Below are positions 7,447-60,010 of a stretch of 64,000 nucleotides of DNA, in pieces. The stretch lies in the NCBI RefSeq assembly GCF_001677475.2, contig NZ_CP015229.1. One strand, given 5' to 3'. Position 1 is the first letter of the stretch. Every line of letters starts with the position of its first letter. The stretch is from Escherichia coli (lineage in GTDB: Bacteria; Pseudomonadota; Gammaproteobacteria; Enterobacterales; Enterobacteriaceae). The notes below the pieces were generated by a model that did no database searches, was not told where the DNA came from, and was given only the letters and a program-made list of their open reading frames with translations. The position numbers and the translations under genes were made by a program.

Positions 7447-7449
7447 AAA

Positions 7450-7612: not shown

Positions 7613-7615
7613 TAA

Positions 7616-10459: not shown

Positions 10460-10483
10460 GTAGTTATCTATCCAGTTTCGGTT

Positions 10484-11362: not shown

Positions 11363-11451
11363 GGCGTCGTATGGGTTCTCATGTTAGTTAATCAAAACGC
11401 CGTCGTTAATCACCAACGGCGGGGACATCTGCCAGTCAAATGCCTGGCAAA

Positions 11452-11919
11452 TTATTCTTTCTCGGCAATGTACGGATCCTCATAGCCCAGAGCAAGCATA
11501 ATCTCTGTTTCGAGGGCTTCCATTTCTTCTGCTTCGTCATCTTCGATGTGATCGTAACCTAACAAATGCAGACTGCCGTGCACCACCATATGCGCCCAGT
11601 GCGCCTCCAGTGGTTTGCCTTGCTCCTGTGCTTCCTTCTCAACCACCTGACGGCAGATAACCAGATCGCCCAGTAGCGACATTTCCATGCCAGGCGGTAC
11701 TTCAAACGGGAAGGAGAGCACGTTGGTCGGCTTATCCTTACCGCGATAGGTCAGATTCAGACTGTGGCTTTCGGCGGTATCGACCACGCGAATCGTCACT
11801 TCCGATTCTTCCTGAAACTGCGGGATCACCGCATTCAGCCATGTCTGAAACTGGCTCTCTTCCGGTAACCCGGAATTATCTTCACATGCCAGTTGTAAAT
11901 CGAGGATCACCTGACTCAT
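11452..11919 (-). CDS. ybeY: Endoribonuclease YbeY (rRNA maturation)
   Basis: 155 aa with metal-binding [11 protein letters not shown] motif. Confidence 0.9.
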
Positions 11920-12956: not shown

Positions 12957-13108
12957 ACCGTTCCTCTTATCTGTATGCCGCCGGAAGCTGAACATTCACC
13001 GGCCTATAAGGAAATTATTCACGCCACAGGAAAAAGGCGCAAGCATTGCGATAAAGATGGGGATAAAGAGAGAAAAAACAAGGCCCACCGGAACGGCGGG
13101 CCTGAGAA

Positions 13109-14533: not shown

Positions 14534-14678
14534 CGACTTGCTCTTGCGAAATAGTAGCCAGGAATGCAGGGCGCATAGTGTAATGCTTTGCTGCCGTTGT
14601 GACCAGTATGAGCGTTATCAGCCCTTGGGGGTAAAAATCCTGTAAACTTAAAGCATATTGCTAACAGGATGATTGACC

Positions 14679-15854: not shown

Positions 15855-15970
15855 CCTTACAACATTGCCGGATACATGCCAACCGTAGGTCGGATAAGAC
15901 GCGTCAGCGTCGCATCCGACTTTGAAGGATAAGACGTGTCAACATCGCATTCGACATTGAATATACGCAG

Positions 15971-16003
15971 AAAAGCAAAAAGCTCGCCGAAGCGAGCTTT
16001 TTT
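15971..16003 (-). terminator. Rho-independent terminator of the metT tRNA operon
   Basis: GC hairpin AAAAAGCTCGC-CGAA-GCGAGCTTTTT immediately downstream (minus strand) of the last tRNA. Confidence 0.7.
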
Positions 16004-16007
16004 AATG

Positions 16008-16082
16008 TGGCTGGGGTACGAGGATTCGAACCTCGGAATGCCGGAATCAGAATCCGGTGCCTTACCGCTTGGCGATACCCCA
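16008..16082 (-). tRNA. glnX: tRNA-Gln (anticodon CUG)
   Basis: 75-nt match to E. coli tRNA-Gln; anticodon loop GGATTCTGATTCCGG on minus strand; CCA 3' end encoded. Confidence 0.9.
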
Positions 16083-16119
16083 ACTGGGTGCACTTACGAT
16101 GTAAGCGTCTTGAATAAAT

Positions 16120-16194
16120 TGGCTGGGGTACGAGGATTCGAACCTCGGAATGCCGGAATCAGAATCCGGTGCCTTACCGCTTGGCGATACCCCA
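16120..16194 (-). tRNA. glnV: tRNA-Gln (anticodon CUG)
   Basis: Identical copy of the 16008-16082 tRNA sequence. Confidence 0.9.
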
Positions 16195-16242
16195 ACAAAT
16201 TGGTTTGTGAATTTGCCGAACTTATTCGACACATTCAGAATT

Positions 16243-16319
16243 TGGTGGCTACGACGGGATTCGAACCTGTGACCCCATCATTATGAGTGATGTGCTCTAA
16301 CCAACTGAGCTACGTAGCC
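16243..16319 (-). tRNA. metU: tRNA-Met elongator (anticodon CAU)
   Basis: 77-nt cloverleaf GGCTACGTAGCTCAGTTGG...CTCATAA...; CCA encoded. Confidence 0.9.
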
Positions 16320-16334
16320 AGATTGTTTCTTCGA

Positions 16335-16409
16335 TGGCTGGGGTACCTGGATTCGAACCAGGGAATGCCGGTATCAAAAACCGGTGCCTTACCGCTTGGC
16401 GATACCCCA
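16335..16409 (-). tRNA. glnW: tRNA-Gln (anticodon UUG)
   Basis: 75-nt tRNA-Gln with anticodon loop CCGGTTTTTGATACCGG. Confidence 0.9.
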
Positions 16410-16443
16410 ATAACCGGGCGGTGAACCGCTTACTCGAAGAAGA

Positions 16444-16518
16444 TGGCTGGGGTACCTGGATTCGAACCAGGGAATGCCGGTATCAAAAACCGGTGCCTTA
16501 CCGCTTGGCGATACCCCA
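16444..16518 (-). tRNA. glnU: tRNA-Gln (anticodon UUG)
   Basis: Identical copy of the 16335-16409 tRNA. Confidence 0.9.
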
Positions 16519-16541
16519 TCCGTACAACGCTTTCTGGTGAA

Positions 16542-16626
16542 TGGTGCGGGAGGCGAGACTTGAACTCGCACACCTTGCGGCGCCAGAACCTAAATCTGGT
16601 GCGTCTACCAATTTCGCCACTCCCGC
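16542..16626 (-). tRNA. leuW: tRNA-Leu (anticodon UAG)
   Basis: 85-nt type II tRNA with long variable arm; anticodon loop AGATTTAGGTTCT. Confidence 0.9.
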
Positions 16627-16634
16627 AAAAAAGA

Positions 16635-16711
16635 TGGTGGCTACGACGGGATTCGAACCTGTGACCCCATCATTATGAGTGATGTGCTCTAACCAACTGA
16701 GCTACGTAGCC
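16635..16711 (-). tRNA. metT: tRNA-Met elongator (anticodon CAU)
   Basis: Identical to the 16243-16319 tRNA; first gene of the operon. Confidence 0.9.
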
Positions 16712-17090
16712 ATCTTTTTTTCGCGATACCTTATCGGCGTTGCGGGGCGCATTATGCGTATAGAGCCTTGCAGCGTCAACCTCTTTTTCAAGGAAAATTG
16801 CTCGAAAGTGACTGTTTGGTTAGGTTGCGAACAGCGTGGCGCTATATTCGTCAATTATTGTTTACTTTGTGTTTTTTCCCCACCCTACAGCCATTCTTTT
16901 GTCATACAGGATGAAATTCGGAATTCAACAATAGTGGTGGGAAATTAATCTATGAAGTACTGGCCTACAGTGATGAATTGTCAAACAGTGATGTGGCAAA
17001 CCCTGAACATTTCCTTACTGCATATCAGAATCAACAAGCAGCTCAATAACTAAAACAGCCCCGGATTTCTCCGGGGCAGTACCGCATTTC

Positions 17091-18755: not shown

Positions 18756-19011
18756 AACCTTCTCCGTTAACCTGGTATTTGTTGCTTGTTGTGTTTGCTT
18801 GTTTAAAAAAATGCCGCAAAGCAGCACTGTGCGCAAGCGATTTGGCAGGGGGTAAATAAAAAACGTAATGGTGATTGCTGATTAATGAAAAAGGGTAGGG
18901 TGTGGAGGTGTATTTATTGATGAATCGATAATTTTTGGCGGGTTTTATTGAATGGGTGAATTTTAATGATGGGTAAAAATAAGAAACCACGCCCTGAGGC
19001 GTGGTTGCTAT

Positions 19012-19764
19012 TCAGATAACGTCGATTTCAGCGACTGACGGGTAAATCCAGCTTGGGCGGAACGGCATACTGTCGATATCGTCAAGCGACGAAACACCAG
19101 AGAGCACAAGAATCGTCTCCAGACCGGCCTGGAAGCCCGCCAGAATATCGGTACGCAAGTTATCGCCGACAATCACCGTTTCTTCCGAATGCGCCTGCAT
19201 TTTGTTTAATGCCGCGCGGATGATCCACGGACTCGGCTTTCCAACATAGAACGGTTTGCGCCCGGAGATTTTCTCGATCCCTGCACACAACGCGCCACAG
19301 GCGGGATAAAAACCGCGCCCGTGGGTGTCCGGGTTGGTGGCGATAAAGCGTGCACCGTTAGCGACGAAATAGGCTGCTTTATGCATCATGTCCCAGTTGT
19401 AGGAACGCGTTTCGCCAACAATCACAAAATCAGGGTTCACATCGGTAATAGTGAAACCGGCTTTGTACAGTTCATGAATCAGTGCGCCTTCGCCCACCAC
19501 ATACGCTTTCTTGCCTTCCTGGCGACGCAGGAAATCGGCGGTCGCCATCGCGGAGGTATAAAACACGCTATCCGGTACATCGACACCAGCAGTGGCAAAG
19601 CGGTTCGCCAGATCTTGCCCGGTCTGCGAAGGATAGTTGGTCAGCAACACCAGCGGCAGGCCTTTATCCATAATCCCGTGCAAAAATTCCGCTGCACCCG
19701 GTACGGCGACGTTATCGTGCATCAGCACGCCGTCGATATCGCAAATTACATTTTTAATGGTCAT
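19012..19764 (-). CDS. umpH: UMP phosphatase (HAD superfamily) UmpH/NagD
   Basis: 250 aa with HAD motif DIDGVL; synteny next to nagC. Confidence 0.85.
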   Translation of the reverse strand: MTIKNVICDIDGVLMHDNVAVPGAAEFLHGIMDKGLPLVLLTNYPSQTGQDLANRFATAGVDVPDSVFYTSAMATADFLRRQEGKKAYVVGEGALIHELYKAGFTITDVNPDFVIVGETRSYNWDMMHKAAYFVANGARFIATNPDTHGRGFYPACGALCAGIEKISGRKPFYVGKPSPWIIRAALNKMQAHSEETVIVGDNLRTDILAGFQAGLETILVLSGVSSLDDIDSMPFRPSWIYPSVAEIDVI

Positions 19765-19811
19765 GGACTACCCAGAATATTGACAACAATAAGCGCCACT
19801 ATAAAAGCATA

Positions 19812-21032
19812 TCAATTTTCCAGCAAATGCTGGAGCAAAATACCGTTGAGCATGGCGCGTTTTACCAGCGCAAAAGCGCCGATTGCCGAGCGGTGATCCA
19901 ACTCAGAACGTACCACCGGTAGATTAGTACGAAACGCCTTCAGCGCCTGGGTATTAATGCAGCTTTCAATAGCAGGGAGCAGCACTTTATCGGCTTCGGT
20001 GATTTCTCCAGCAATAACAATTTTTTGCGGATTAAATAAGTTGATAGCAATGGCGATGGTTTTACCCAGATGACGACCGACATATTCAATCACTTCCGAG
20101 GCCAGGCTATCGCCTTTGTTCGCGGCTTTGCAGATAGTTTTGATGGTGCAGTCGTCCAGTGGCACACGGCTCTGGTAGCCCTGCTTTAATAAATTCAACA
20201 CCCGTTGTTCAATGGCAGCGTTGGCAGCGATAGTTTCCAGGCAGCCGAAGTTGCCACAGTGGCAGCGTTCTCCCAGCGGTTCAACCTGAATATGACCAAT
20301 TTCACCGACGTTGCCGTTGCGGCCGATAAAAATGCGCCCGTTAGAGATGATTCCAGCCCCCGTTCCGCGATGCACGCGCACCAGAATGGAGTCTTCGCAA
20401 TCCTGACTTGCACCGAAGTAGTGCTCTGCCAGCGCCAGACTGCGGATATCGTGGCCGACAAAACAGGTCACTTTAAAACGCTCTTCCAATGCTTCTACCA
20501 GCCCCCAGTTTTCTACCTGAATATGCGGCATGTAATGAATTTTGCCGCTGTCCGGGTCAACAAGTCCTGGCAGGATCACGGAAATGGCGATCAGCTCGCG
20601 CAGCTTGCGCTGGTAGCTATCAATAAACTGAGCAATGGCGTTAAGCAGGGCATGTTCCAGCGTCTGCTGGGTACGTTCCGGCAGCGGGTAATGTTCTTCT
20701 GCCAGCACTTTGCTACTGAGATCAAACAAGGTGATGGTGGCGTCGTGACGACCAAGCCGTACGCCGATTGCGTGGAAATTGCGGGTTTCGGTGACGATGG
20801 AGATAGCGCGGCGGCCCCCGGTGGAGGCCTGCTGATCAACTTCTTTGATCAGCCCGCGTTCGATAAGCTGACGCGTAATTTTGGTTACGCTGGCGGGGGC
20901 AAGCTGACTTTGCTCGGCAATCTGAATCCGCGAGATTGGCCCATACTGGTCAATCAGGCGATAAACCGCCGCGCTGTTAAGCTGTTTTACGAGATCAACA
21001 TTACCTATCTGAGCTTGTCCGCCTGGTGTCAT
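19812..21032 (-). CDS. nagC: N-acetylglucosamine repressor NagC (ROK family)
   Basis: 406 aa, N-terminal HTH plus ROK sugar-kinase-like domain; synteny. Confidence 0.9.
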   Translation of the reverse strand: MTPGGQAQIGNVDLVKQLNSAAVYRLIDQYGPISRIQIAEQSQLAPASVTKITRQLIERGLIKEVDQQASTGGRRAISIVTETRNFHAIGVRLGRHDATITLFDLSSKVLAEEHYPLPERTQQTLEHALLNAIAQFIDSYQRKLRELIAISVILPGLVDPDSGKIHYMPHIQVENWGLVEALEERFKVTCFVGHDIRSLALAEHYFGASQDCEDSILVRVHRGTGAGIISNGRIFIGRNGNVGEIGHIQVEPLGERCHCGNFGCLETIAANAAIEQRVLNLLKQGYQSRVPLDDCTIKTICKAANKGDSLASEVIEYVGRHLGKTIAIAINLFNPQKIVIAGEITEADKVLLPAIESCINTQALKAFRTNLPVVRSELDHRSAIGAFALVKRAMLNGILLQHLLEN

Positions 21033-46444: not shown

Positions 46445-46533
46445 CAGAACGCCTCCGCATTGATCAGGGCATAAACCAGATAACCCAGTAATAAAAACAC
46501 CAGCAACACGCCGGCTATCACGCCTGCACTCAC
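46444..46533 (-). CDS. kdpF: K+-transporting ATPase subunit F (29 aa)
   Basis: GTG-initiated [28 protein letters not shown]; single TM helix; stop overlaps kdpA start. Confidence 0.75.
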
Positions 46534-46599
46534 AGTGCACCTCCAGTGGCCTAAAAGTGATACCGGAAGGGTAGAATTCTGGCTGCAAAGATTTCGCAA

Positions 46600-46640
46600 A
46601 AATCTTCGGGCGGGATGTAAAAAAAGTATAAAAATGGCAA
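46600..46640 (-). promoter_or_regulatory. kdpFABC promoter with KdpE-binding T-rich box
   Basis: Minus-strand CATTTTTATACTTTTTTTACATCCCGCCCG resembles the known KdpE operator upstream of kdpF. Confidence 0.5.
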
Positions 46641-46845
46641 AAGCCATGATTTAACTGATGGTTAGTATTAATTTAACTTTTGTGTAACTTAATTACAGTG
46701 TGAATGTAAATAAACCATCAATAAGCAAAAATAAGTGGTCGGATGAGTAGTAAAATTACACAAAAGGCGGTACTATTTTCATCAGATAAACAAATTCATT
46801 TTTCCGGTGCCATTCACCGGGTAGATACAAAAGGGGGAGAAAAGT

Positions 46846-47052
46846 ATGGAACTCTACAGAGAATATCCTGCATGGCTTATCTTTTTACGCCGTACTTATG
46901 CGGTTGTAGCGGGCGTCCTGGCGCTGCCTTTCATGCTTTTCTGGAAAGACCGCGCCCGCTTTTACAGCTACCTGCATCGCGTCTGGTCGAAAACCAGCGA
47001 TAAACCGGTGTGGATGGATCAGGCCGAAAAGGCAACTGGTGATTTTTACTGA
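46846..47052 (+). CDS. ybfA: DUF2517 small protein YbfA
   Basis: 68 aa [20 protein letters not shown]... Confidence 0.8.
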
Positions 47053-48054
47053 TTGCCTGCGCGTTTAAGCCAGCCTCGTATCAGGGGGCTGGTTTAGGCG
47101 TTTTGAATCAACGGGTTCCATGGTGTTGTTCATTTAATCACTGTTTTAGTATCAATTTTCAATAGTATCCTTTCATAGGACTACTCTGGATGCGTTCACC
47201 TTCATTGTCGCTCTAAGCAACTAGATCCTCAGAAATCTCCAGTTAGGTTGCATCCTTCCTTACACACTTTCCTGAAACTTCAGGGTAAGGTGAGAAAGCC
47301 GCCATCACTTTTTCTTATTCCAGCATCTAAATAAATTCCGAATTTTGCTATTAATATCGCTACCGCAATAAAAACAGATAGTAAAGAGAGTAATATATAC
47401 TTTAGTGATATGTTAAGAATAATTGATTGTTAACATATCTAATGGGATAAGATGTGTTTCTGTTAATGAAAATATTCAAGATTTATAGTTGATAATTAAA
47501 ATACACTCGATATCTCAGCCCTTTCTATGCAAGATGCAATTTTATAAGCTGTCCATTTTTTATATGGAGGCGGTAGCGTGTTTGTTACTCGTGATTTTAT
47601 TGGTATGGTGAATATGTTGGGATTGTTAAATACATAACGGCATATCAGTTCCGGTCATTGTAAATATGGGTAATTGCTTAATGTTATTAGTGATTACCGT
47701 TTGAAAGATAAAGAGTGCTGTAAAGCGGTGATAGACATTACATTCATGATTAAAAAACAGAACCTGTCAATAAATAATTCATTTATTAAAAAGGACGACT
47801 TCTATTATGACGGAATATTATCTCAATGAGACGGTTTGCAAATACAGAGCCAGTTTCTCCGGGGTAACGAGCAGGTGTACCAGTGTCAGGTGGCATTTGT
47901 ATTGCCGGGTGAGCGGGTCATGATGGCCTTCACCTACGCCCGAACCACACCGCTGACCCCGGCAGATATGACGCGCTGGGCTGAAATTAAAAAGAATCTG
48001 CGCTTCAGGATGCGGCAGGAAGCCGGGACGAATTAATCACACAGGGAACGGGAC

Positions 48055-51000
48055 ATGGAAGAGGCATTCTGGGCGGCAAGGCAGGGTGATGCCCTGCTGC
48101 ATACGTCGTTTATGGCAGATGTGCTGGGGGCAGTTGTAGAGGTTGCCGCCACAGCCCTGGTGGATGTTCTGGTTGTCGGAACCATGGCGGCGCTGGGCGG
48201 AGTTGAAGTGGCAACGCTGGGCTGCTCAACCATTTTAGCGATCGGTATAGCAACAGCGGTATTTATGTCGTATCAGGGCTGGAATGACCGAATCAGTAGG
48301 GAAAGTGAGCAACTGGCGAACTGGCTTTTCCCGCCTCAGATTGAAGGTTACATCCTCACCGGCTCTGGCGACACATGGATCAACAGCAAACCTGCCGCGC
48401 GGGCCGCGGCGACTGCGGCATCGCGGCAGGACATTGAGGCGCAGGAGGCGCAGGCGAAGGCGGAACAGGAAGAAGCGCAGCGTCAGGAGGATGCCAGAAC
48501 GTTCCTGGATGTGGCCGGGGAATATCTGGAAATGGCGGGGGCCATAGCCCTGGCGGTTAACCCGGTGACAGGGCCTGTGCTGATGTCCCGGGCGCTGCAC
48601 GACCAGCTCAGTACGGAAGAAGGGCGTTCTGAAATGGTGGATGGCGTGACACATTTTGTGTCGGAACTATGGCAGCCCACCGTGGCCAGTGCGGCCCCGG
48701 GCTCCACCCCGACCCCTGACGATAAAATCGACTGCCATAAACATCCCTCCTCACTGACGCAGTTTCTCGCACAAAAAAAAGCCGCCTTTCTGGATGACCC
48801 CCTGGGAACGGCCCTTAACCTGCTGAGTCCGGGCGGTATGCTGGAAACCGCCTTTCAGGGAGTGAATGCGGTTATTGGCAGCATCAGTAATCTGTTCAAA
48901 GGCGATGATGAACCGCCCGCAGCGGAATATATCGCGGAAGGCGCGCGGGATGTGCGTATCAACAGCCAGCCGGCGGCACGCAGCGGGGCACGCTGCACCT
49001 GCGAGGCCAGGGTGGTGAATGAGCCGGGGAACGGGGCGTTTGTGTCACCGGATGTCCGCATTGGCGGTCCGTTACTGGTGGTCAGGGATATCAGAAGCGG
49101 CAGGTCGCAGATAACCCTGGTGGCAACCGTGGCGCTGATGTTTCTTCGCCCGGGCAAAATGCTTTCTAAAATCGCCTGTTTTGCTGCCAGTGTCGGGATG
49201 GGGGTGATGACGCAGAAGGCCATCAGTGCCCTTCCGCATCCGGTCAATGCCGCCACCGGAGCCAAATATCTGGCCGATGACGATGATTTTGACTTCAGTC
49301 TGCCGGGCCACTTTCCGCTGGACTGGCAGCGCGTGTACAGCAGTCGTGACGACCGCACGGAAGGGATGTTCGGGCAGGGCTGGAGTGTAATGTATGAAGT
49401 CAGCCTCGAGCGCACGCCGGGTACTGCTGACGAAAACTGTATGACCTTTGTGTCGGGCATGGGACGACGTCTGGATATGGAGGCCGTGCTGCCGGGGAGC
49501 GGGTTTTACAGCCCCGGCGAAGGACTGGCAGTACGGCGGGGTGAGCAGGGGCACTGGCTTATCAGCAGCGATGACGGGCAGTTTTTTCTGTTTGAGGCCG
49601 ACCCGCGTCACCCGCAGCGCCAGCGGCTGAAAATGCTGGGCGACCGCAACAGCAACTGTCTGAATCTGTACTACGACGAGCTGGGGCGCATCACGCAAAT
49701 CAGCGGTGAACAGCAGCGTCCGTGCATCCGTCTGCATTATGAACTGGCGGCGCATCCCCGGCGGGTGACACAGATTTATCAGCATTTCCCTGAGATGGCT
49801 CCTTTACTGCTGCGTCGTTACCGCTATGACGAGGCCGGCGACCTGAACGGCGTGTACGACAGCACGGGGCACCTGCTGCGCGAGTTTGCTTACGACGAAA
49901 ACCACTGCATGACCCTGCACCGCCAGCCGGGCGGCGAAGGGTATTATTACCAGTGGGGCTGGTATGAAGGCCCGGATGACGCAGCGTGGCGGGTGACGGG
50001 GCACCACACGGACAGCGGTGAACAGTACCGGCTGGCGTGGAGCCTGGCGGCACGCAGGCTGTGCGTGACGGACGGGCTGGGGCGCACGCGTTATCATCAG
50101 TGGGACGCGCAAAATCAGGTGACGGCGTACCAGGACGAAGCCGGGCAGGTGACGACGTTCCGCTGGAGCGACGAAGAACGGCTGTTACTGGGAATGACCG
50201 ATGCGCAGGGCGGCAAATGGCGCTATGTGTATGACCGGCAGGGGCATATCACGGAGACGCACGACCCGCTGGGGCGGGTGGCACAGACACAGTGGCACCC
50301 GGTGTGGCACCAGCCGGAAACGGAGGTGGACGCGGCGGGGAACAGCTGGTGCTGTGAGTACGATGAACGCGGCAATCTTCTTGCGGTGACCGACCCGCTG
50401 CAGCAGAACACCCGGTATCAGTATGACCGCCACGGCCAGGTGGTGCAGATAACGGATGCGCGCGGGGGGAATAAATACCTTCAGTGGAACGAAGACGGGC
50501 AGCTCATGCGGCACACGGACTGTTCCGGCTCGCAGACGGCCTGGTTCTACGACGAACGCACGCGGCTGATACGGATGACAGACGCGCAGAGCCACAGCAC
50601 GCGCTACGGGTATGACGACAGCGGCCACCTGACGGAGGTGATACTGGCGGACGGCCGCACGGTGAATTACCAGTCGGACGCGGCGGGCAGGCTGGTGAAG
50701 TACACCAGCCCGATGGGGAGGATAACGCGCTGGCAGCGGGACGGGCAGGGCCGGGTGCGCAGCCGGACAGACGCGACGGGGCGCAGGACGGCGTTCGGGT
50801 ACGATGCCTACGGGCGTCTGGTCACGCTCACGAACGAGAACGGAGAAAGCTACCGGTTCCGCCATGACGTGCTGGACCGTCTGGCGGAGCAGATAAATCC
50901 GGACGGCTGCCGCCAGACGTACCGCTACAACGCGCTGAACGCGGTCACGGAAGTGGTGTTCACCGGGGACCGGGGCGGTGAAATCCGCCACCGGCTGGCA

Positions 51001-52737
51001 CGTGATGCGGCGGGCCGGCTCACGGCAAAGGAGACAGCCGATGGCCATACGGAATACGTCCATGATGCGGCAGACCAGCTACTGGAAATCCGCCGCCGAC
51101 GGTCGGATGCCGGGGAAACAGACGCACCGGAGATTATCCGTTTCAGTTACGACAGACTGGGGCGGATGCTGACCGAGGAGACGGCGCAGGGCGTCCTGAC
51201 CCATCAGTACGATGAACTCAGCAACCGGACAGCCACCACCTTTCCGGATGGCAGAACGCAGCGTCATCTGTACTACGGCAGCGGCCATCTCCAGCAGATA
51301 AATCTGGACCGGGAGGTCATCAGCGAGTTCACACGTGACGCCCTGCACCGGGAAGTGCTCAGAAGTCAGGGGCGACTGAGCACGCGGCAGCTTTATGACC
51401 CCGCCGGGCGGCTGAAGCGCAGGGAGACATACAGCGGGATGCGCGGGGTGGTACCGGAGACGTTCACGGACCGGCAGTACAGCTACAGCGGCGAGGATGA
51501 ATTGCTGAAGACGCGGCACAGCCGGCGGGGGGAAACGGATTACTTCTACGACCCCACGGGGCGCATCACGGCGTGCCGCTCGGAGGATGAGAGGTATCTG
51601 GCGAGCTGGCAGTACGACGCGGCGGGAAACCTGCTGGGGAGGCGCGCGGGGGAAAGGGCCACGGCAGAAAACAGCGTGGTGCCGTTCAACCGGCTGATGT
51701 CTTACCGTGGTGTGCACTACCGTTATGACGAATTTGGCCGGACGGTGGAAAAGGAGGGCCGGAGCGGCACGCAGAGTTACCGTTATGATGCGGAACACCG
51801 GATGGTGGAAGTGACGACAGCGCGGGGGACATACCGGTATGTGTACGATGCGCTGGGGAGGCGGACGGAAAAACAGCACATCAGCCCTGACGGTAAACCG
51901 TACAACCGGACGACATTTTTATGGGACGGAATGCGGCTGGCGCAGGAGAGCAGGCCGGAGGGAATAAGCAGCCTGTATATCTACAGCGACCCGGGGAGTT
52001 ATGAACCGCTGGCGCGGGTGGATAAGGCGGGCAAAGAGGGCCCGAACCGGATACTGTATTTTCACACGGATGTGAACGGTGCGCCGGAAGAGATGACGGA
52101 CAGTGACGGGAAAATCGTGTGGGAGACGGGGTATCAGGTCTGGGGTAACACGATACAGGAGAAGGACCACGGCGGGGTGGAGCAGAACCTGCGCTACCAG
52201 GGACAGTACCTCGACAGGGAAACGGGGCTGCATTACAATCTGCACAGGTACTATGATCCGGATGTCGGGCGGTTCATGGTAACGGACCCGATAGGGCTGG
52301 CGGGGGGACTGAATCTTTACCAATACTCACCGAATCCAATAAGTTGGATCGACCCGCTGGGATTAACAGGGGAGTGGGTTAATCCCAAAGATATTAATTT
52401 TTCTCAAAGAACAATATCACCTCATGATTATGCCGATATTATGCGTAATGGTGGTTGGGATTGGGACAGGTCTCCATTAAGAGTAATTGATATTGATGGG
52501 CAATTAGTTTCTTATGATAATAGGCGATTAGACGCAGCTCTAGAGGCCGGATTAGATAAGGTTAAAGTCATTAGAGTTGACCCTAATGCTCCTCATCCTG
52601 ACTCATCTACTGGAAAAACATGGTTACAAAAATTCCGAGAGAGATTTAGAGATCGAAGAAATATAAAGGCCGGTGGAATAGTACCAGATAAAGGATTAAA
52701 TTCTCGACCGGAAAGAACATCAAGAGGTTGCAAATGA
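48055..52737 (+). CDS. Rhs-family polymorphic toxin with prePAAR motif, N-terminal TM segments, PAAR motif, YD-repeat shell and variable C-terminal toxin domain
   Basis: 1560-aa ORF; N-terminus MEEAFWAARQGDALLH fits AARxxDxxxH; hydrophobic segments at residues ~20-70; SKPAARA PAAR motif; many YD repeats; [27 protein letters not shown] demarcation before a unique ~130-aa tip. Confidence 0.85.
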   Translation: MEEAFWAARQGDALLHTSFMADVLGAVVEVAATALVDVLVVGTMAALGGVEVATLGCSTILAIGIATAVFMSYQGWNDRISRESEQLANWLFPPQIEGYILTGSGDTWINSKPAARAAATAASRQDIEAQEAQAKAEQEEAQRQEDARTFLDVAGEYLEMAGAIALAVNPVTGPVLMSRALHDQLSTEEGRSEMVDGVTHFVSELWQPTVASAAPGSTPTPDDKIDCHKHPSSLTQFLAQKKAAFLDDPLGTALNLLSPGGMLETAFQGVNAVIGSISNLFKGDDEPPAAEYIAEGARDVRINSQPAARSGARCTCEARVVNEPGNGAFVSPDVRIGGPLLVVRDIRSGRSQITLVATVALMFLRPGKMLSKIACFAASVGMGVMTQKAISALPHPVNAATGAKYLADDDDFDFSLPGHFPLDWQRVYSSRDDRTEGMFGQGWSVMYEVSLERTPGTADENCMTFVSGMGRRLDMEAVLPGSGFYSPGEGLAVRRGEQGHWLISSDDGQFFLFEADPRHPQRQRLKMLGDRNSNCLNLYYDELGRITQISGEQQRPCIRLHYELAAHPRRVTQIYQHFPEMAPLLLRRYRYDEAGDLNGVYDSTGHLLREFAYDENHCMTLHRQPGGEGYYYQWGWYEGPDDAAWRVTGHHTDSGEQYRLAWSLAARRLCVTDGLGRTRYHQWDAQNQVTAYQDEAGQVTTFRWSDEERLLLGMTDAQGGKWRYVYDRQGHITETHDPLGRVAQTQWHPVWHQPETEVDAAGNSWCCEYDERGNLLAVTDPLQQNTRYQYDRHGQVVQITDARGGNKYLQWNEDGQLMRHTDCSGSQTAWFYDERTRLIRMTDAQSHSTRYGYDDSGHLTEVILADGRTVNYQSDAAGRLVKYTSPMGRITRWQRDGQGRVRSRTDATGRRTAFGYDAYGRLVTLTNENGESYRFRHDVLDRLAEQINPDGCRQTYRYNALNAVTEVVFTGDRGGEIRHRLARDAAGRLTAKETADGHTEYVHDAADQLLEIRRRRSDAGETDAPEIIRFSYDRLGRMLTEETAQGVLTHQYDELSNRTATTFPDGRTQRHLYYGSGHLQQINLDREVISEFTRDALHREVLRSQGRLSTRQLYDPAGRLKRRETYSGMRGVVPETFTDRQYSYSGEDELLKTRHSRRGETDYFYDPTGRITACRSEDERYLASWQYDAAGNLLGRRAGERATAENSVVPFNRLMSYRGVHYRYDEFGRTVEKEGRSGTQSYRYDAEHRMVEVTTARGTYRYVYDALGRRTEKQHISPDGKPYNRTTFLWDGMRLAQESRPEGISSLYIYSDPGSYEPLARVDKAGKEGPNRILYFHTDVNGAPEEMTDSDGKIVWETGYQVWGNTIQEKDHGGVEQNLRYQGQYLDRETGLHYNLHRYYDPDVGRFMVTDPIGLAGGLNLYQYSPNPISWIDPLGLTGEWVNPKDINFSQRTISPHDYADIMRNGGWDWDRSPLRVIDIDGQLVSYDNRRLDAALEAGLDKVKVIRVDPNAPHPDSSTGKTWLQKFRERFRDRRNIKAGGIVPDKGLNSRPERTSRGCK

Positions 52738-53168
52738 AAAATATTATTCAGTTATGGGAAGATGGTTTATTACCGATAAAAGATGCTATTTACTTTTCTA
52801 ACGGTGAATCTTTCCTTTGTAAAATAACATCTTACCCTACTCCTTGTATTGAGAAAAATGGTGAGTTTGATTTCTCTGCCTTTTATGAAAAAAATAAAGA
52901 TGAAGTTACTGATATTGATAAGTCTAGAGAAGTTAAATTAGCGAATAATTGCTATTGTTGCATTGGAGAAGGTAGTTATGGTTCTGAAGGATTTATCGCA
53001 TATCTCGATGAAAATAAAAACTTAGTTTGGGTTCTTTATTCCGAAGAATCTAATCCATTTATTAATATAACTGAATATACATCTGATATTATTATAGTAG
53101 AATCAAGTTCTAATATTAGACTAAGAATAAATATAAACAATCCAGTGGATTTAGAATTGGCATTTTAA
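52734..53168 (+). CDS. Putative cognate immunity protein of the Rhs C-terminal toxin
   Basis: ATG overlaps the rhs TGA stop (ATGA); AT-rich 144-aa ORF directly downstream of a toxin tip. Confidence 0.6.
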   Translation: MKNIIQLWEDGLLPIKDAIYFSNGESFLCKITSYPTPCIEKNGEFDFSAFYEKNKDEVTDIDKSREVKLANNCYCCIGEGSYGSEGFIAYLDENKNLVWVLYSEESNPFINITEYTSDIIIVESSSNIRLRININNPVDLELAF

Positions 53169-53169
53169 A

Positions 53170-53211
53170 TAAAAAGCCGGGTGAAATTAAATCTTCCCGG
53201 CTTTTTTATTA
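53170..53211. terminator. Hairpin terminator (AAAGCCGGG-loop-CCCGGCTTTTTT), first of four copies of this motif
   Basis: Perfect GC stem flanked by A and T runs between the immunity gene and the convergent symE-like gene; similar hairpins at 57795-57835, 60412-60452 and 62816-62902. Confidence 0.7.
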
Positions 53212-53212
53212 T

Positions 53213-53542
53213 TTAACTCTCGTTCAGCACACTAAACATCCCGTTCCGCATCCCCTTAACCACCTGTTTAACCTGATAAAGTTCTTCCCGCAGCTCCTGC
53301 ACCTCGTCACTGTCAGCGATGATGGTCAGGTACCCCTCCGAAATCTTCACCGTGACACCCCGCCCGGTATCAAATCCCGCCTCAGCCAGCCAGTCGCCCT
53401 TGAGGTGCAGGCTGGGATGTTGTGAATAATACCGGGCTATACCTGTTGTGCGGTCCTGGTGGCGGGTTCTGACATAGCCGACTTTATAGCGGCGCTGGGT
53501 TTTGGAAATGGTGACTTCTGGCGTAATATCGTGTTCAGCCAT
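53213..53542 (-). CDS. SymE-like protein (type I toxin family, AbrB/MazE-like fold), full-length copy
   Basis: 109-aa ORF; core HLKGDWLAEAGFDTGRGVTVKISEGYLTII resembles SymE KGxWLxxAGFxxGxxVxV motif as recalled. Confidence 0.6.
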   Translation of the reverse strand: MAEHDITPEVTISKTQRRYKVGYVRTRHQDRTTGIARYYSQHPSLHLKGDWLAEAGFDTGRGVTVKISEGYLTIIADSDEVQELREELYQVKQVVKGMRNGMFSVLNES

Positions 53543-53781: not shown

Positions 53782-54861
53782 GTGCGCCAGGCGGCCTACG
53801 CGCTCAAGCTGTTGCAGTCGGACGGGGAACTGACCATCGCCAGTACGGGCAAGGATGACGCCAGCGGTAACCTGGTCACCAAACAGTATACGGTGAAAGG
53901 CCCGGTGATGCTGATGCTGACCACCACCGCCATCGATGTTGACGAGGAGTTACTCAACCGCTGTCTGGTGCTGACGGTGAACGAATCGCGGGAACAGACG
54001 GAAGCTATCCACGCGGCGCAGCGTTACGCGCAGACGCTGGAAGGACTGCTGGCGGCTAACGAAAAAAGTTACATCACGCAGCTTCACCAGAACGCGCAGC
54101 GGCTGCTGCGCCCGCTCAACGTGGTGAACCCGTTCGCCTCGCAGCTCACGTTCATGAGCGACAAAACCCGCACCCGGCGCGACCACATGAAATACCTGAC
54201 GCTGATCCAGGCGATCGCCCTGCTGCACCAGTACCAGCGGGAGATCAAGCGCGTGGAGCATCGCGGGCAGGTGGTGGAGTACATCGAGGTCACGCGGGAG
54301 GACATCGCCCTGGCGAACCGCCTGGCACATGAAATACTCGGGCGCACCCTGGATGAAATGCCGCCGCAGACGCGCAAACTGTTAACCCTGATCCAGCAAT
54401 GGGTGAGCGACAGCGGTCAGGCGCGTGAGGCGATGCGGTTCACCCGTAAACAACTGCGTGACGCGGTACAGTGGGGCGACACGCAGCTCAAGATCCACCT
54501 GGCGCGGCTGGTCGAAATGGAATATCTGCTGGTCCACCGTCTCGGGCTGACGTTCTGCTATGAACTGCTGTTCGACGGGGACGGCAGCGCAGACACCGCG
54601 CACCTGTGCGGGCTGATCGACGTACCGGAACCACCGTATGACGTCGCCCGGTCGGGGGAAACGGTGAAGCAGCTGGCCTCTGGTCGGGCAGTGGTCGGCG
54701 GTCAGTCGGGTAAGGAAAAAACCGCCTCAGACCAGACACCACGAGGCTTACAGGCCGGAGCGGTCGGGGCAGAGGAAAAAGCCCTGTTCCGGCAGAACGC
54801 AAAAAAACCGTCCCGCAATCATACTGCGGCCCGTCCGGGCCGGAGCAACACGGAAGCATAA
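53782..54861 (+). CDS. Hypothetical protein, apparently 5'-truncated (no ATG; frame closed by TAA just upstream); function unknown
   Basis: 1080-nt open frame in GC-rich DNA, far longer than the overlapping opposite-strand ORFs; no family recognised. Confidence 0.35.
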   Translation: MRQAAYALKLLQSDGELTIASTGKDDASGNLVTKQYTVKGPVMLMLTTTAIDVDEELLNRCLVLTVNESREQTEAIHAAQRYAQTLEGLLAANEKSYITQLHQNAQRLLRPLNVVNPFASQLTFMSDKTRTRRDHMKYLTLIQAIALLHQYQREIKRVEHRGQVVEYIEVTREDIALANRLAHEILGRTLDEMPPQTRKLLTLIQQWVSDSGQAREAMRFTRKQLRDAVQWGDTQLKIHLARLVEMEYLLVHRLGLTFCYELLFDGDGSADTAHLCGLIDVPEPPYDVARSGETVKQLASGRAVVGGQSGKEKTASDQTPRGLQAGAVGAEEKALFRQNAKKPSRNHTAARPGRSNTEA

Positions 54862-55065
54862 GTACGACTTCATCCGGTCGGGGCAACGGCTGCAATAGTC
54901 GGCCCCTGGTCGGCAGTCAGTCGGCGGGTAGTCGGGGTGCGTAAAACCCCCGCAGGCCGCGCCCGGCAAGGTTCAGGCCATGAAGCGGTCGGCCTGCCTG
55001 AAAATCACTGTTCCATCCTCTGTTCTTCTCTCTGTCGTACCGTAATCTCAATCAGGACAATCATC

Positions 55066-56095
55066 ATGACAAAACCCATCCCTCCGGGGCCGGAGGAACT
55101 TTACCTCAGCCGCCAGAACCTGACGCAGCGCCAGTATGTGGTGGTGTGGCTGGAATACCTGACGGCACAGAACTACAGCGCGATCAGCGTAAGCGACTAT
55201 CGCGAACGGGTGTTACCGTTCGTGACATGGTGTGAGGAGCGCGGGCTGATGTACGCGCCGCAGGTCAGCCAGCCGCAGCTTGAAAGCTATCAGCGCCACC
55301 TTCACGGCTACCGTAAGGCGGACGGCCATCCGCTGGCGGTCAGCGGTCAGGTGGGCCGGATAAGCGCGATAAAAATCTTTTACCGCTGGCTGCTGAAGCG
55401 GCATGTGATCCTGTACAACCCCGCCGATCTGCTGGAACTGCCAAAGCCGGACAAACGGCTTCCGGCGCAGGTGTTCAGTAAGGGCGAGACGCGGCAGGTG
55501 TTACAGAGCCTTGATATCAACACGCCCGTTGGCCTGCGCAACCGGACAATCCTTGAGGTGCTGTGGAGTACCGGGATCAGGCGGATGGAGCTGGCCAGCC
55601 TGATGTTGTGGGATGTTGACACCGGGCGCGGTGTGGTTAACGTGCGGCAGGGTAAGGGGCGTAAGGATCGGGTGGTTCCGGTGGGCCATGTGGCGCTGGG
55701 ATGGCTGGCAAGACGTGCGACCACAGATGACGCGCCAGCGCGACAGTGGTCATCTGTTCGTGACGAAATACGGCAGCGGGATGAAACGCAACACGCTGAC
55801 GGCGATGGCAGGCACCGCGATCCGGGAAACGGCACGGATCGACAAACCGGGCGCGTGCCATATCTTCCGGCACTCGATGGCGACGCAGATGCTGGACAAT
55901 GGCGCAGACACGCGGCATATCCAGGCGATCCTCGGCCATGAGAAGCTGGAGACGACGCAGATCTACACGAAGGTGGCCATAAAGCCGTTGCAGAAGGTTC
56001 ATGCGCGGACGCACCCGGCAGAGAAGCGGCGAAGGGAAAAGCGCGTGCAGCAGCCGGACGAGGCCACCGTATCGCCGGACAGCCTGAAAAGTTAG
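55066..56095 (+). pseudogene. Tyrosine recombinase (phage-integrase family) with frameshift
   Basis: N-terminal SAM-like domain in one frame to ~55710 ([13 protein letters not shown]), catalytic domain ([16 protein letters not shown]...[13 protein letters not shown]...[13 protein letters not shown]) in the other frame from ~55700; single indel inferred. Confidence 0.65.
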
Positions 56096-57005
56096 GTGGC
56101 GATCCCTGTAAGGCCGTGGGGTGCGGTGCAGGGCAGACAACCGCCTTCCCTGGCGGTTGACTGCCCCCTGCCAGCGGCGTGCGCGGGGGTAAATGCCGTC
56201 CGCCCCGTGGAGGCAGCCGCGCCCCATGCGACCATGCAGCACGGGGCAAACGTCATTCAACATAATGCGGATTATGCGCACTCTCGCCGGTCGGCAATGA
56301 CGGCGAACCCGATCCGCTGTGCGCGGCTCGTGTTCGCACAATCCGCATTATGTCTGACGCCCCCGCGTTCAGCCCCGTGGTCCGTGCAGCGCAAAGCTTC
56401 GCTGGCGCTCCGCTCTGCTGCCGGGTGCGGTGTTCTTCTGTGGCCCCGCAGTCGCCGCCATCCCTGGCGGCTCCGGTGCCGTTCTGCGGCAGCGTCATCG
56501 TGTGGCAGTCAGTCAGAAAAGGGTGTCGGCCTGGCGGCCTCCGCTTGTAAGGGCTTTATGCCCGCCCGGCGTCGTCTGGCTGCGGCGGCTCGTGCCGCGC
56601 AAAAAGGCCGCGCGTCACTCGTTCCCGCCTCGCCAGCTTCCGCTGCCCGCCCCGGTCAGGTGTGGTCATGCAAAGGCAACCCCCGGTCAGGCAGCGGTGC
56701 CACAGAGCGCCGTTCCGTCGCTTGCGGACTCTCTGCCGCCCGCACCCGCAGACCCCGCGCCGTGGCCCCGCCATGCCGCCGGAGGCGTCCTGGCGGCCCC
56801 CCGTCACGGGGTGCCGGAAACGGACTTAGTGGAAAGCGGAATGACAGGCGGTGGTGGTGGTGCTATGGTGAGCGGGCGTGAAAATGCGCGTCGGGAAAGT
56901 CGGGTTAACGTGCTGTTAAATAAGTAAAAGGTGATAGCCGGGAAGCCAGAAACGGCGCGGGCGGTAGCGTGTTAAAAAGTGTGACCTGCACCGGATCGTT
57001 CCGAT

Positions 57006-57515
57006 GACCCGATAGGACTGCGGGGTGGATTAAATCTCTATCAATATGCGCCGAATCCGTTGAGCTATATTGATCCTCTTGGCCTTTGTAAATTAAGGGG
57101 AAGTAATGGGCGCTTCAGAAGTGCTCAGAATATTCAGGAAGAAATAGGCGGACTACCTAATTTTTCAGGGAAGACTCCAGGGCAAATACGACAAACTTTG
57201 CGTAATCGAGTTTATTCGTCGGTACAAGCGCATAGTGGTGGAGAGGTCTGGACAAAAGCATTACCTGACGGAAATACTGTTGCTGTGAGAATTGACCCGG
57301 CAAATCCTCGCTCACCTTCACATTATGCTGATGCTGTGCCTCATGCTCATATTGAAACAGTTCCAACGTCCAGTGTTTCTAATGGGAATTATCGCCCACG
57401 AGACGTGACTGGCAGGCATACTGCCACTGGTGGGATTTCTGACCGAGGAACGAATCCGAATCATAATGCTGATGTTCACATTCCAATGTCTCCGGGACGA
57501 TTCCCATATAATTAA
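57006..57515 (+). CDS. Orphan Rhs C-terminal toxin module (DPIGL homology patch plus toxin tip), no upstream core
   Basis: Frame opens with [28 protein letters not shown] then a unique ~140-aa domain; no ATG at the patch. Confidence 0.6.
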   Translation, partial: DPIGLRGGLNLYQYAPNPLSYIDPLGLCKLRGSNGRFRSAQNIQEEIGGLPNFSGKTPGQIRQTLRNRVYSSVQAHSGGEVWTKALPDGNTVAVRIDPANPRSPSHYADAVPHAHIETVPTSSVSNGNYRPRDVTGRHTATGGISDRGTNPNHNADVHIPMSPGRFPYN

Positions 57516-57526
57516 TGTGAGGTTTT

Positions 57527-57790
57527 ATGAATATCCGAAATCAATATAATGAAGCCTTAAATAAATTAGAAGTTGATGTTAATGATGGTTTAAGAGATTT
57601 AATAAACATATATTGTGTAGCTATTGATTCTTTTGAAAATGATATCGTTGACTCGATTGCTTTATACGTGATTGATATGGGAAATAAAGATACTTGTCGA
57701 TATCTACAAGAAATATTATCAGAGAATGAAGATCCTTATTTAGTAAAAGAATTTAATGCATGGATGAAAGAAATTAAGAAAAAATATTAA
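57527..57790 (+). CDS. Putative immunity protein for the orphan toxin at 57006-57515
   Basis: AT-rich 87-aa ORF 11 nt downstream of the toxin stop with RBS-like GAGG. Confidence 0.5.
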   Translation: MNIRNQYNEALNKLEVDVNDGLRDLINIYCVAIDSFENDIVDSIALYVIDMGNKDTCRYLQEILSENEDPYLVKEFNAWMKEIKKKY

Positions 57791-57836
57791 AATAAAAGCC
57801 GGGACGGTTATTAAATCTTCCCGGCTTTTTTATTAC

Positions 57837-58070
57837 TTAACTTTCGTTCAGCACACTAAACATCCCGTCACGCATTCCCTTAACCGCCTGTTTAACCAGA
57901 TAAAGTTCCCTGCGCAGTTCCTGTACTTCGTTGTTATCCGCAAGCAGGATCAGACATCCTTCCGAGATCTTCACGGTGACGCCCGTGCCGATCTCAAATC
58001 CCGCTTCTCTCAGCCATTTTGCGCTGATTTTGATTACCGGCGTGTCGCTGCGGTTGGGCAGATAACCCAC
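57837..58070 (-). CDS. SymE-like protein, short paralog (77 aa)
   Basis: KISAKWLREAGFEIGTGVTVKISEGCLILLADNNEVQELRRELY...; synonymous differences from copy 1 in this frame. Confidence 0.55.
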   Translation of the reverse strand: MGYLPNRSDTPVIKISAKWLREAGFEIGTGVTVKISEGCLILLADNNEVQELRRELYLVKQAVKGMRDGMFSVLNES

Positions 58071-58263
58071 GGTACAGTGGCGCTGTGTTTTGGAAATGAT
58101 ATTCTTATATTTAATCTGCTGATTAGATAGTAAAATTAACTTCGTGCAGATAGCTTACTTTATCAGGGTGCGGCGGTAGTGTATGAACTATGACGTGATG
58201 GTTTTAGTGATTTATATACGAAAATGACAGTACGATCCGGACTTCGAATAGATTGCGCGATTT

Positions 58264-58413
58264 GACCCGATAGGGCTGGCGGGGGGATTAAATCTCTATC
58301 AATATGCGCCTAATCCGTTAAGTTATATTGATCCACTTGGATTGTGTCCTAAAACTGACTTTAAATGGGGAAATCCCAGGGAAAGATCACGTAATGCTGC
58401 TTTTTTGTACTAA
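58264..58413 (+). pseudogene. Truncated orphan rhs C-terminal fragment
   Basis: [49 protein letters not shown] then stop, just before the ISAs1 element. Confidence 0.5.
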
Positions 58414-58419
58414 ACAATT

Positions 58420-59700
58420 CGCATTTTATGTTTAAAAATTGAGATATTCCTCATTACATAAAGCTGTTTTTTATTGCTTATACATGATCAAATACTCCTT
58501 ACATAATTAAGGAGAACAAAATGGAACTTAAAAAATTGATGGAACATATTTCTATTATCCCCGATTACAGACAAGCCTGGAAAGTGGAACATAAATTATC
58601 GGATATTCTACTGTTGACTATTTGTGCCGTTATTTCGGGTGCAGAAGGCTGGGAAGATATAGAGGATTTTGGGGAAACACATCTCGATTTTTTGAAGCAA
58701 TATGGTGATTTTGATAATGGTATTCCTGTTCACGATACCATTGCCAGAGTTGTATCCTGTATCAGTCCTGCAAAATTTCACGAGTGCTTTATTAACTGGA
58801 TGCGTGACTGCCATTCTTCAGATGATAAAGACGTCATCGCAATTGATGGAAAAACGCTCCGGCATTCTTATGACAAGAGTCGCCGCAGGGGAGCGATTCA
58901 TGTCATTAGTGCGTTCTCAACAATGCACAGTCTGGTCATCGGACAGATCAGGACGGATGAGAAATCAAATGAAATTACAGCTATCCCTGAACTTCTTAAC
59001 ATGCTGGATATTAAAGGAAAAATCATCACAACTGATGCGATGGGTTGCCAGAAAGATATTGCAGAGAAGATACAAAAACAGGGAGGTGATTATTTATTCG
59101 CTGTAAAAGGAAACCAGGGGCGGCTAAATAAAGCCTTTGAGGAAAAATTCCCACTGAAAGAATTAAATAATCCAGAGCATGACAGTTACGCAATTAGTGA
59201 AAAGAGTCACGGCAGAGAAGAAATCCGTCTTCACATTGTTTGCGATGTCCCTGATGAACTTATTGATTTCACGTTTGAATGGAAAGGACTGAAGAAATTA
59301 TGCGTGGCAGTCTCCTTTCGGTCAATAATAGCAGAACAAAAGAAAGAGCCAGAAATGACGGTCAGATATTATATCAGTTCTGCTGATTTAACCGCAGAGA
59401 AGTTCGCCACAGCAATCCGAAACCACTGGCACGTGGAGAATAAGCTGCACTGGCGTCTGGACGTGGTAATGAATGAAGACGACTGCAAAATAAGAAGAGG
59501 AAACGCCGCAGAATTATTTTCAGGGATACGGCACATCGCTATTAATATTTTAACGAATGATAAGGTATTCAAGGCAGGGTTAAGACGTAAGATGCGAAAA
59601 GCAGCCATGGACAGAAACTATCTCGCGTCAGTCCTTGCGGGGAGCGGGCTTTCGTAATCTTGCCCTGGGGGAAATCCAAAAAGTAAGCCTACATACGGTC
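58420..59700 (+). mobile_element. ISAs1-family (H-repeat) element; ends not precisely mapped
   Basis: Contains the 378-aa H-repeat-associated transposase ORF; boundaries approximate. Confidence 0.6.
58521..59657 (+). CDS. ISAs1-family transposase (H-repeat-associated protein, YhhI/YbfD-like)
   Basis: 378-aa ORF with typical H-rpt protein content; K-12 rhs loci carry homologues. Confidence 0.8.
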
Positions 59701-59726
59701 ACACATTTTCTGAACACGGACAGAAA

Positions 59727-59993
59727 ATGAAACCAAGTCAGTTAATTGATCGTGCCAGAAATAAAGGTCATCAAGTAGGACAATATCTCGATGATAATTC
59801 TGCTGCTGATTTTATTGCTTCTGTTGCCAAAAAAGGTCCGGGTGTGCATGATGTGCCATTGCCTACAAATATAAAAGGTCGAGGTTATTTGCCTGATGGG
59901 ACAGAGGTCGTTCCAGATATGGCAAGGGTTGTTGTAAAACCCGATGGTTCTGTACGAACATCGTTCCCATTCAATTCATCACACACCAACTAA
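59727..59993 (+). CDS. Hypothetical protein, possibly the distal part of an orphan toxin split by the ISAs1 insertion
   Basis: 88-aa ORF starting 70 nt after the H-rpt transposase stop, followed by an immunity-like ORF. Confidence 0.35.
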   Translation: MKPSQLIDRARNKGHQVGQYLDDNSAADFIASVAKKGPGVHDVPLPTNIKGRGYLPDGTEVVPDMARVVVKPDGSVRTSFPFNSSHTN

Positions 59994-60010
59994 AGTAATG
60001 AAGGGTATAT

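Follow-up and report, generated by a model that had tools for sequence, protein, structure and literature searches.

The window analysed here is a 64,000-nt stretch of the E. coli chromosome, which carries kdpFABCDE, ybfA, an rhs island and mobile-element genes, and which was compared with a set of 5426 complete E. coli genomes. Its left 47 kb have the same run of ordinary core genes, leuS through kdp, in the same order as a near-identical strain. The interval of interest separates ybfA from rhs. It runs from the ybfA stop codon (47052) to the rhs ATG (48055) and thus covers exactly 47053–48054, i.e., 1002 bp. The features of the locus are as follows.

46846–47052, + strand: ybfA, the left flanking core gene (Pfam DUF2517, E 5.5e-34)
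about 47057 or 47106 to 47726, no strand assigned: AT-rich non-coding leader, specific to this rhs island (GC 30–35%, no ORF of 60 aa or more, no Rfam match)
47061–47101, + strand: hairpin with a 17-bp stem followed by UUUU, probable ybfA terminator (RNA fold)
47727–47757, + strand: vestige of a vgrG 3′ end, which reads KAVIDITFMIKK as compared with the VgrG C-terminus LAIDVAFMTKK*
47750–47778, + strand: sigma-70-like hexamer pair TTAAAA-17-AATAAT, 29 nt upstream of the eag ATG, a weak promoter candidate
47807–47836, + strand: eag 5′ stub, nt 1–30, codons 1–10 (MTEYYLNETV), from alignment to the intact eag genes of RM8082, D7 and the ansP locus of strain 181.1
47807–47923, + strand: accidental 38-codon ORF, made of eag codons 1–10 and then out-of-frame eag (ORF list and direct reading)
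47836/47837, + strand: deletion junction, with 223 bp lost (pairwise alignments)
47837–48036, + strand: eag 3′ remnant, nt 254–453, codons 86–150 and TAA, ending in QEAGTN* (alignment and Pfam)
48055–52737, + strand: rhs, intact, encoding a class I prePAAR Rhs effector of 1560 aa, the client of the lost chaperone (motif and Pfam)
about 48130–48350 (220 bp), + strand: mosaic patch in the Rhs transmembrane region, of the ansP-locus type and not of the usual ybfA-locus type
52728–53168, + strand: candidate immunity gene of 146 aa, from its position after the Rhs C-terminal toxin

The ybfA–rhs interval

The earlier note had described about 1 kb of AT-rich DNA with no intact gene ahead of rhs, and the composition and ORF list bear this description out. 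The GC content is 34.6% over 47053–47806 and 30.2% over 47300–47806, as compared with 51.6% for the whole window; the second segment comes close to the window minimum, which is 29.8% per 500 bp. No ORF of at least 60 aa is found in 47053–47806 on either strand, those present being of 40 and 51 aa. A Rfam scan of 46500–48300 gave two chance-level matches, both outside 47053–48054. The 1002-bp region as such was found in 213 of the 5426 genomes. In a BLAST comparison with the K-12 locus, similarity ends at 47056, four bases past the ybfA stop, and an unrelated rhsC element starts at the same point after ybfA in K-12. Since the similarity stops there, the whole 1 kb is island DNA rather than core intergenic sequence.

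The hairpin that follows ybfA (−28.1 kcal/mol, z = −3.85 against shuffled sequences) is kept in the allele of strain RM8082 and is probably the ybfA terminator. A consensus terminator scan found no terminator in the region and missed this hairpin because of its 7-nt loop, long stem and weak T-tract. Beyond it, the AT-rich leader occurs at a single place per genome in 199 of the 5426 E. coli genomes and is annotated in none of them. It exists as two deep haplotypes (identities of at least 98% and of 80–90%). The deletion allele described below lies on one of these, and no intact-eag representative of this upstream haplotype was found among the 5426 genomes. In strain D7, the leader is interrupted by ISEc1. 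In RM8082, it contains an extra 27-bp palindromic insert, TCTTCCATGATAATTAACATGGAAGAC (6062–6088 of its locus), which is absent from the window at about 47113.

The leader presumably holds the promoter region of the island. The hexamer pair at 47750–47778 is the one weak site returned by a promoter consensus scan of the region, against 4.2 expected in shuffled sequences. AAGGA at 47791–47795 reads as a plausible Shine-Dalgarno sequence for the eag ATG.

The eag remnants and their intact relatives

Just upstream of rhs, the earlier note had pointed out two short overlapping frames. Both are present, one of 38 aa and one of 66 aa (47836–48036), which overlaps the former in another reading frame; the start of the first, placed at about 47798, actually lies 9 nt further on, at 47807. 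Alignment with intact homologues identifies these short frames as the two ends of an eag gene destroyed by an internal deletion of 223 bp, which removed nt 31–253 of a 453-bp gene, i.e., codons 11–85. The 5′ stub differs from the intact copies at 3 of its 30 positions, and from 47840 onwards the 3′ remnant matches the ansP-linked eag of strain 181.1, an intact copy, with 100% identity. As 223 corresponds to 74 codons plus one nucleotide and is thus not a multiple of three, the two halves lie in different frames, and the ATG at 47807 is not in phase with the 3′ remnant. The gene is indeed broken and shortened, as the note had supposed, the lesion being this internal deletion and not a simple point frameshift. 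No clear microhomology was seen at the junction, where two of the three bases TGC (47837–47839) agree with the 3′ flank.

The eag remnant ends with a stop codon (48034–48036) 18 nt before the rhs ATG. At 47920–47923, the TGA of the 38-codon ORF (47921–47923) overlaps the in-frame ATG of eag Met113 (47920–47922) as ATGA. Termination-reinitiation at this overlap could allow ribosomes to translate the 38 final eag codons and stop 18 nt short of rhs; such an arrangement would be incidental.

The 66-aa frame matches positions 77–126 of the 127 positions of the Pfam profile PF08786 (DcrB/DUF1795), with an E value of 1.8e-5. Its score of 25.3 bits is below the gathering cut-off of 27.2 bits, and the full-length domain expected of an Eag protein is not present. 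Neither does the window copy offer an uninterrupted ORF of about 150 aa. A working chaperone cannot be made from this locus. As regards position, the remnant lies directly upstream of a prePAAR effector, as expected of an Eag gene.

The earlier note had suggested comparing the same locus in related strains, and these carry at this place an intact 453-bp gene annotated as 'DcrB-related protein'. It encodes 150 aa in RM8082 (6783–7235 of its locus) and D7 (10974–11426), and in the intact-eag genomes it stands directly before rhs in a ybfA–rhs region that is about 250 bp longer. The remnant was also supposed to derive from the chaperone of the prePAAR effector. The PF08786 match, the intact gene at the same site and the alignment over nt 1–30 and 254–453 together establish this origin. 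The note would have dropped this idea had neither frame resembled Eag proteins and had no longer homologue existed elsewhere; both the resemblance and the longer homologue were found.

Further insights into the family came from the intact protein. The intact Eag paralogue scores 68.2 bits against PF08786 (profile positions 11–126), well above the same cut-off. A profile was built from the intact protein and seven homologues of 69–99% identity, mainly from Salmonella and Superficieibacter. When searched against the PDB, it retrieved only SciW (6XRB, 6XRR, 9MVG), the Eag chaperone that serves Rhs1 in Salmonella, with E values of 6e-4 to 1e-3. An AlphaFold (AF2) model of the intact Eag, of moderate confidence (pLDDT 65, pTM 0.62), was compared with known structures by Foldseek. 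EagT6 and SciW came first (E 6e-6 to 2e-4, TM 0.5–0.58) and DcrB ranked lower. Homology and fold are thus shared with the solved Eags, SciW and EagT6, as far as the intact copy of the gene is concerned. NCBIfam returned nothing specific, either for the intact Eag or for the remnant. In the model, the deletion (residues 11–85) removes the strands 22–27, 33–41 and 69–77, part of the strand 9–13, and the long helix 48–65.

Eag chaperones are required for the stability and delivery of prePAAR effectors (PMC7773334; PMC4524185). By analogy, an intact Eag would bind and stabilise the prePAAR segment and the transmembrane N-terminus of Rhs, allowing its loading onto the T6SS. As with the known Eag chaperones EagR1 (Serratia and P. 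protegens), SciW (Salmonella) and EagT6 (P. aeruginosa), the gene here stands directly ahead of that of a prePAAR Rhs effector. The intact copies at the ybfA locus resemble them in their length of about 150 aa and their PF08786 domain, and they match SciW by profile and SciW/EagT6 by predicted fold, although in the structural alignments their identity with the solved Eags is only 20–25%. Unlike all of these, the window copy lacks codons 11–85 and is frame-broken, and is thus a pseudogene.

The distribution of this allele was followed with a 120-nt query across 47836|47837, for which a full-length match was required. The junction was found in 96 of the 5426 genomes, and poultry isolates are frequent among these. 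The same junction precedes several different Rhs-CT/immunity cassettes (Imm8, Imm26 and various hypotheticals). On these genome comparisons, the deletion is shown to be an old, inherited allele, and not an assembly error, since the same junction recurs in so many genomes. The loss of eag is already known as an annotated pseudogene of a well-characterised chaperone family. PGAP records a 'DcrB-related protein, pseudogene (incomplete; missing N-terminus)' at all six near-identical loci retrieved (L001, L004, L007, L009, L010 and L012). The RefSeq/PGAP pseudogenes of strains such as 200164, 181.1, AR_0077 and APEC E12049 have the same sequence and junction, with at least 99% identity. The annotation covers the 3′ piece only and does not note the surviving start and first 10 codons upstream; their survival identifies the lesion as an internal deletion. 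Mildly new are the exact 223-bp lesion, its link with the absence of the T6SS, the mosaic TMD patch and the vgrG relic, the last three of which are detailed below.

The rhs gene, the ansP island and the secretion system

The Rhs protein encoded downstream reads AARQGDALLH at residues 7–16, which corresponds to the prePAAR motif AARxxDxxxH, followed by a hydrophobic TMD region. Pfam recognises a PAAR domain (33.8 bits), DUF6531, 14 RHS repeats and the RHS core, and NCBIfam recognises Rhs_assc_core. The window Rhs thus combines the motif, the single N-terminal TMD region, the PAAR domain and the Rhs cage of a class I prePAAR effector, as this class is defined in PMC7773334. Neither the Rhs C-terminal region nor the 146-aa ORF, which occupies the usual immunity position, matched any Pfam or NCBIfam family. 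The toxin/immunity cassette (52380–53170) was found in one of the 5426 genomes, that of strain A34 (97.2%), which has an intact eag upstream of it.

The immunity gene is closely followed, on the minus strand at 53213–53542, by a type I toxin gene of the SymE family (Pfam E 6e-20); symE also comes after the rhs cassette in the ansP island and in other variants of the ybfA locus. Downstream of symE, 53782–60000 contains mobile-element genes, with several patches below 36% GC; as judged from related genomes, these include a XerC-type recombinase, a DNA primase/CHC2 zinc finger, an ISAs1/ISEc1 transposase and more Rhs fragments.

The rhsC element of K-12 and the orphan rhs elements of EHEC come without linked vgrG or eag. 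K-12 rhsC and the window element share the same insertion point after ybfA, and in both cases an intact rhs stands without a complete linked delivery module. However, K-12 RhsC belongs to a different Rhs lineage, with no DNA similarity to the window past 47056. Unlike it, the window element encodes a prePAAR/TMD Rhs, and it formerly included an eag, and probably a vgrG, of its own.

This last point comes from a comparison with the ansP island, a second island that adjoins ansP and has the order vgrG–eag–rhs–immunity–symE in strain 181.1. DNA homology between the ybfA and ansP islands sets in within vgrG, about 33 nt from its 3′ end, and this point marks the left edge of the shared segment. The ybfA island thus looks like a copy of a vgrG–eag–rhs module minus vgrG. 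Over this edge, 47727–47796 of the window is 74% identical to the 181.1 ansP island (11917–11990; E 1e-8), as compared with 90% for the RM8082 allele (E 1e-26). When the AT-rich leader was searched at the protein level for more of vgrG, only the last 12 codons or so could be recognised.

The Eag proteins of the two loci are very close, the ansP-island Eag differing from the ybfA-locus Eag of RM8082 at 3 of 150 residues (98% identical). Of the 212 genomes with this eag type, 199 have a full-length copy at one or more places. It follows that no fewer than 83 of the 96 genomes with the deletion allele must have such a copy elsewhere, and in the cases examined this second copy lies at the ansP island. 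The ansP islands of 181.1 (12471–16770) and GPEC673 (7472–11795) have intact vgrG and eag and a frameshifted rhs. Decay is thus complementary in these two strains, where the ansP island loses rhs and the ybfA island loses eag but keeps rhs.

The window rhs itself bears the mark of the ansP type. Its mosaic patch is 99–100% identical to the ansP-linked rhs of 181.1 and 53–61% identical to other ybfA-linked rhs genes. Over the first 80 Rhs residues, there are 79 identities with the ansP type and 46 with the ybfA type, and the two types do not differ in the prePAAR segment. Such a patch implies gene conversion between the two rhs loci. The deletion and the patch occur as one contiguous piece in 17 genomes, out of about 88 deletion-allele genomes.

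The secretion machinery was then considered. In RM8082, which has the intact eag allele, a complete T6SS cluster lies between tRNA-Asp (aspU) and dkgB (8782–37877 of that locus, with tssB/tssC at 18848–20932). It comprises tssA–M, hcp and tae4/tai4, and also encodes a VgrG, a PAAR protein and a second Eag; the assembly marks tagK, tssH and hcp as pseudogenes. The DcrB-related/Eag gene of the cluster is only 27% identical, and the cluster vgrG is 82% identical to the ansP-linked vgrG. In strain 181.1, which has the deletion allele, the aspU–dkgB site is empty, dkgB directly abutting the tRNA, and no T6SS gene was found in the approximately 100 kb read at its aspV island. In a spread sample, a single vgrG place was observed in 14 of 16 identifiable deletion-allele strains, the exceptions being JNEC-KY177 and 2012C-4221 (vgrG split by ISEc16), and two places in all of at least 12 intact-allele strains. 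A composite query made of RM8082 tssBC and a 60-nt junction segment was also run by megablast. It covers one tssBC type, so that a divergent T6SS would be missed. It matched 186 of the 5426 genomes, 113 of them with tssBC, at 201 places in total. As 201 places fall in 186 genomes, about 15 genomes have both the junction and tssBC, and about 71 of some 85 junction-positive genomes (about 84%) are without a matching tssBC. At least four of the 17 genomes with deletion and patch are T6SS-positive, namely AR_0077, SCU-171, MEI003 and HCP5S3_I2.

Persistence of the deletion allele

As a whole, the locus is very probably explained by an eag gene lost by deletion within an orphaned island. On this reading, an eag–rhs–immunity island, with eag as its first gene, was acquired horizontally and inserted directly after ybfA. 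The 223-bp internal deletion has destroyed eag, leaving codons 1–10 and, in another frame, codons 86–150. Selection would have been relaxed, as suggested by the genome comparisons, in which most deletion-allele genomes are without the T6SS cluster that accompanies this vgrG/eag/rhs family. Nearly all such genomes also appear to have an intact eag, 98% identical, in the ansP island; where there is a T6SS, this copy could act in trans on the ybfA-linked Rhs. The preferred reading is thus that an orphaned effector island is decaying and that the loss of eag is most likely tolerated through redundancy or disuse. Other states of decay are seen at both loci. At the ybfA locus, rhs has an internal stop behind an intact eag in RM8082, and GDSC2227PM shows the opposite decay (6785–7498), its eag being intact and its rhs cut to the first 243 bp, with ybgA directly after; the ISEc1 insertion in the leader of D7 is a further such state. 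At the ansP locus, vgrG has an internal stop in VCSW5, and rhs is frameshifted in 181.1 and GPEC673. These scattered states, together with redundancy and the absence of T6SS, indicate erosion of an orphaned effector module.

Three other accounts bear on the broken gene itself. The idea that the break is a sequencing or assembly artefact in a gene that is really intact deserves practically no credence, given the identical junction in 96 independent complete genomes and a 223-bp loss which is unlike a homopolymer-type error. The earlier note had alternatively proposed a small regulatory ORF within a promoter region silenced by H-NS. In favour of this are the marked AT-richness of the region, the plausible Shine-Dalgarno and start of the 38-codon ORF, and the overlap of its stop with an ATG as ATGA. 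However, both frames turn out to be eag sequence (codons 1–10, out-of-frame eag, and in-frame codons 86–150). The 38-codon ORF is not conserved as a coding unit of its own, and its 38-aa product exists only through the deletion. No Rfam element was found, and matches to the H-NS nucleation motif are few, since two sites with at most two mismatches (2.7 per kb, against 1.5 per kb window-wide) make an uninformative count. H-NS silencing of the AT-rich leader is in itself plausible, on composition and general knowledge, 30% GC being compatible with binding. A literature search on H-NS and rhs gave nothing specific to this locus, and one on ybfA with T6SS gave nothing relevant. A regulatory or leader ORF of this kind is highly improbable. 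Slightly less credible still is a functional mini-Eag made from the 3′ remnant, either as 66 aa from the TTG at 47836 or as 38 aa from the ATG at 47920 by termination-reinitiation. The frame is open down to its native stop close to rhs, the ATGA could permit reinitiation, and the remnant is fully identical to the intact paralogue. However, such a product would lack residues 1–85, which in the model amount to six of the ten beta-strands and the long helix, with the seventh strand (84–93) cut; its Pfam score is under the cut-off, and the identity with the paralogue is explained by gene conversion between the loci.

A more serious possibility, though one that we still consider rather unlikely, is that the ansP-island Eag chaperones the ybfA-linked Rhs in trans, so that the window Rhs would remain a deliverable toxin. 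It overlaps with the decay of an orphaned island and differs from it only on whether the system is in use. The near-identity of the Eags of the two loci, the common prePAAR segment and the full-length eag that at least 83 of the deletion-allele genomes must hold elsewhere are all consistent with it, as is the identity of the window TMD patch with that of the ansP-linked Rhs. There is also a precedent, since EagR1 provided in trans restores Rhs1 activity in Serratia (PMC4524185). Behind the deletion, rhs is intact over 4.6 kb in seven of eight sampled loci (the window, L001, L004, L007, L008, L010 and L012; L009 is frameshifted), and intact rhs genes with varied toxin cassettes could reflect continued use rather than decay. 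The roughly 15 T6SS-positive deletion-allele genomes, four of which are known to carry the patch as well, count against pure disuse. On the other side, about 84% of the junction-positive genomes are without a matching tssBC, and strains A37 and CT282 combine the deletion and an intact rhs with no second eag. K-12, which has no T6SS, retains intact rhs ORFs, and since such ORFs persist there, an intact rhs ORF is weak evidence of use.

The minority of strains that combine the deletion allele with the matching T6SS, such as AR_0077, SCU-171, MEI003 and HCP5S3_I2, lend themselves to a bolder, and more doubtful, conjecture. Their ybfA-linked Rhs would have outsourced both chaperone and spike to the ansP vgrG–eag pair, the conversion of the TMD patch (48130–48350) to the ansP type having been selected to fit this chaperone and this VgrG. 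If this were true, it would be a case of complementary degeneration, in which one working effector system is divided between two loci.

To come back to decay of the orphaned island as the preferred reading, the loss of this eag matters little on its own, as it concerns a pseudogene of a well-characterised chaperone family that annotation has already flagged. It has its use as a marker: before an intact prePAAR Rhs behind a dead eag is counted among active T6SS effectors, the presence of a T6SS and of a trans-encoded Eag should be checked. The strong association of the allele with absence of the cognate T6SS makes it a small, clean example of the erosion of an effector island once the secretion machine is gone.
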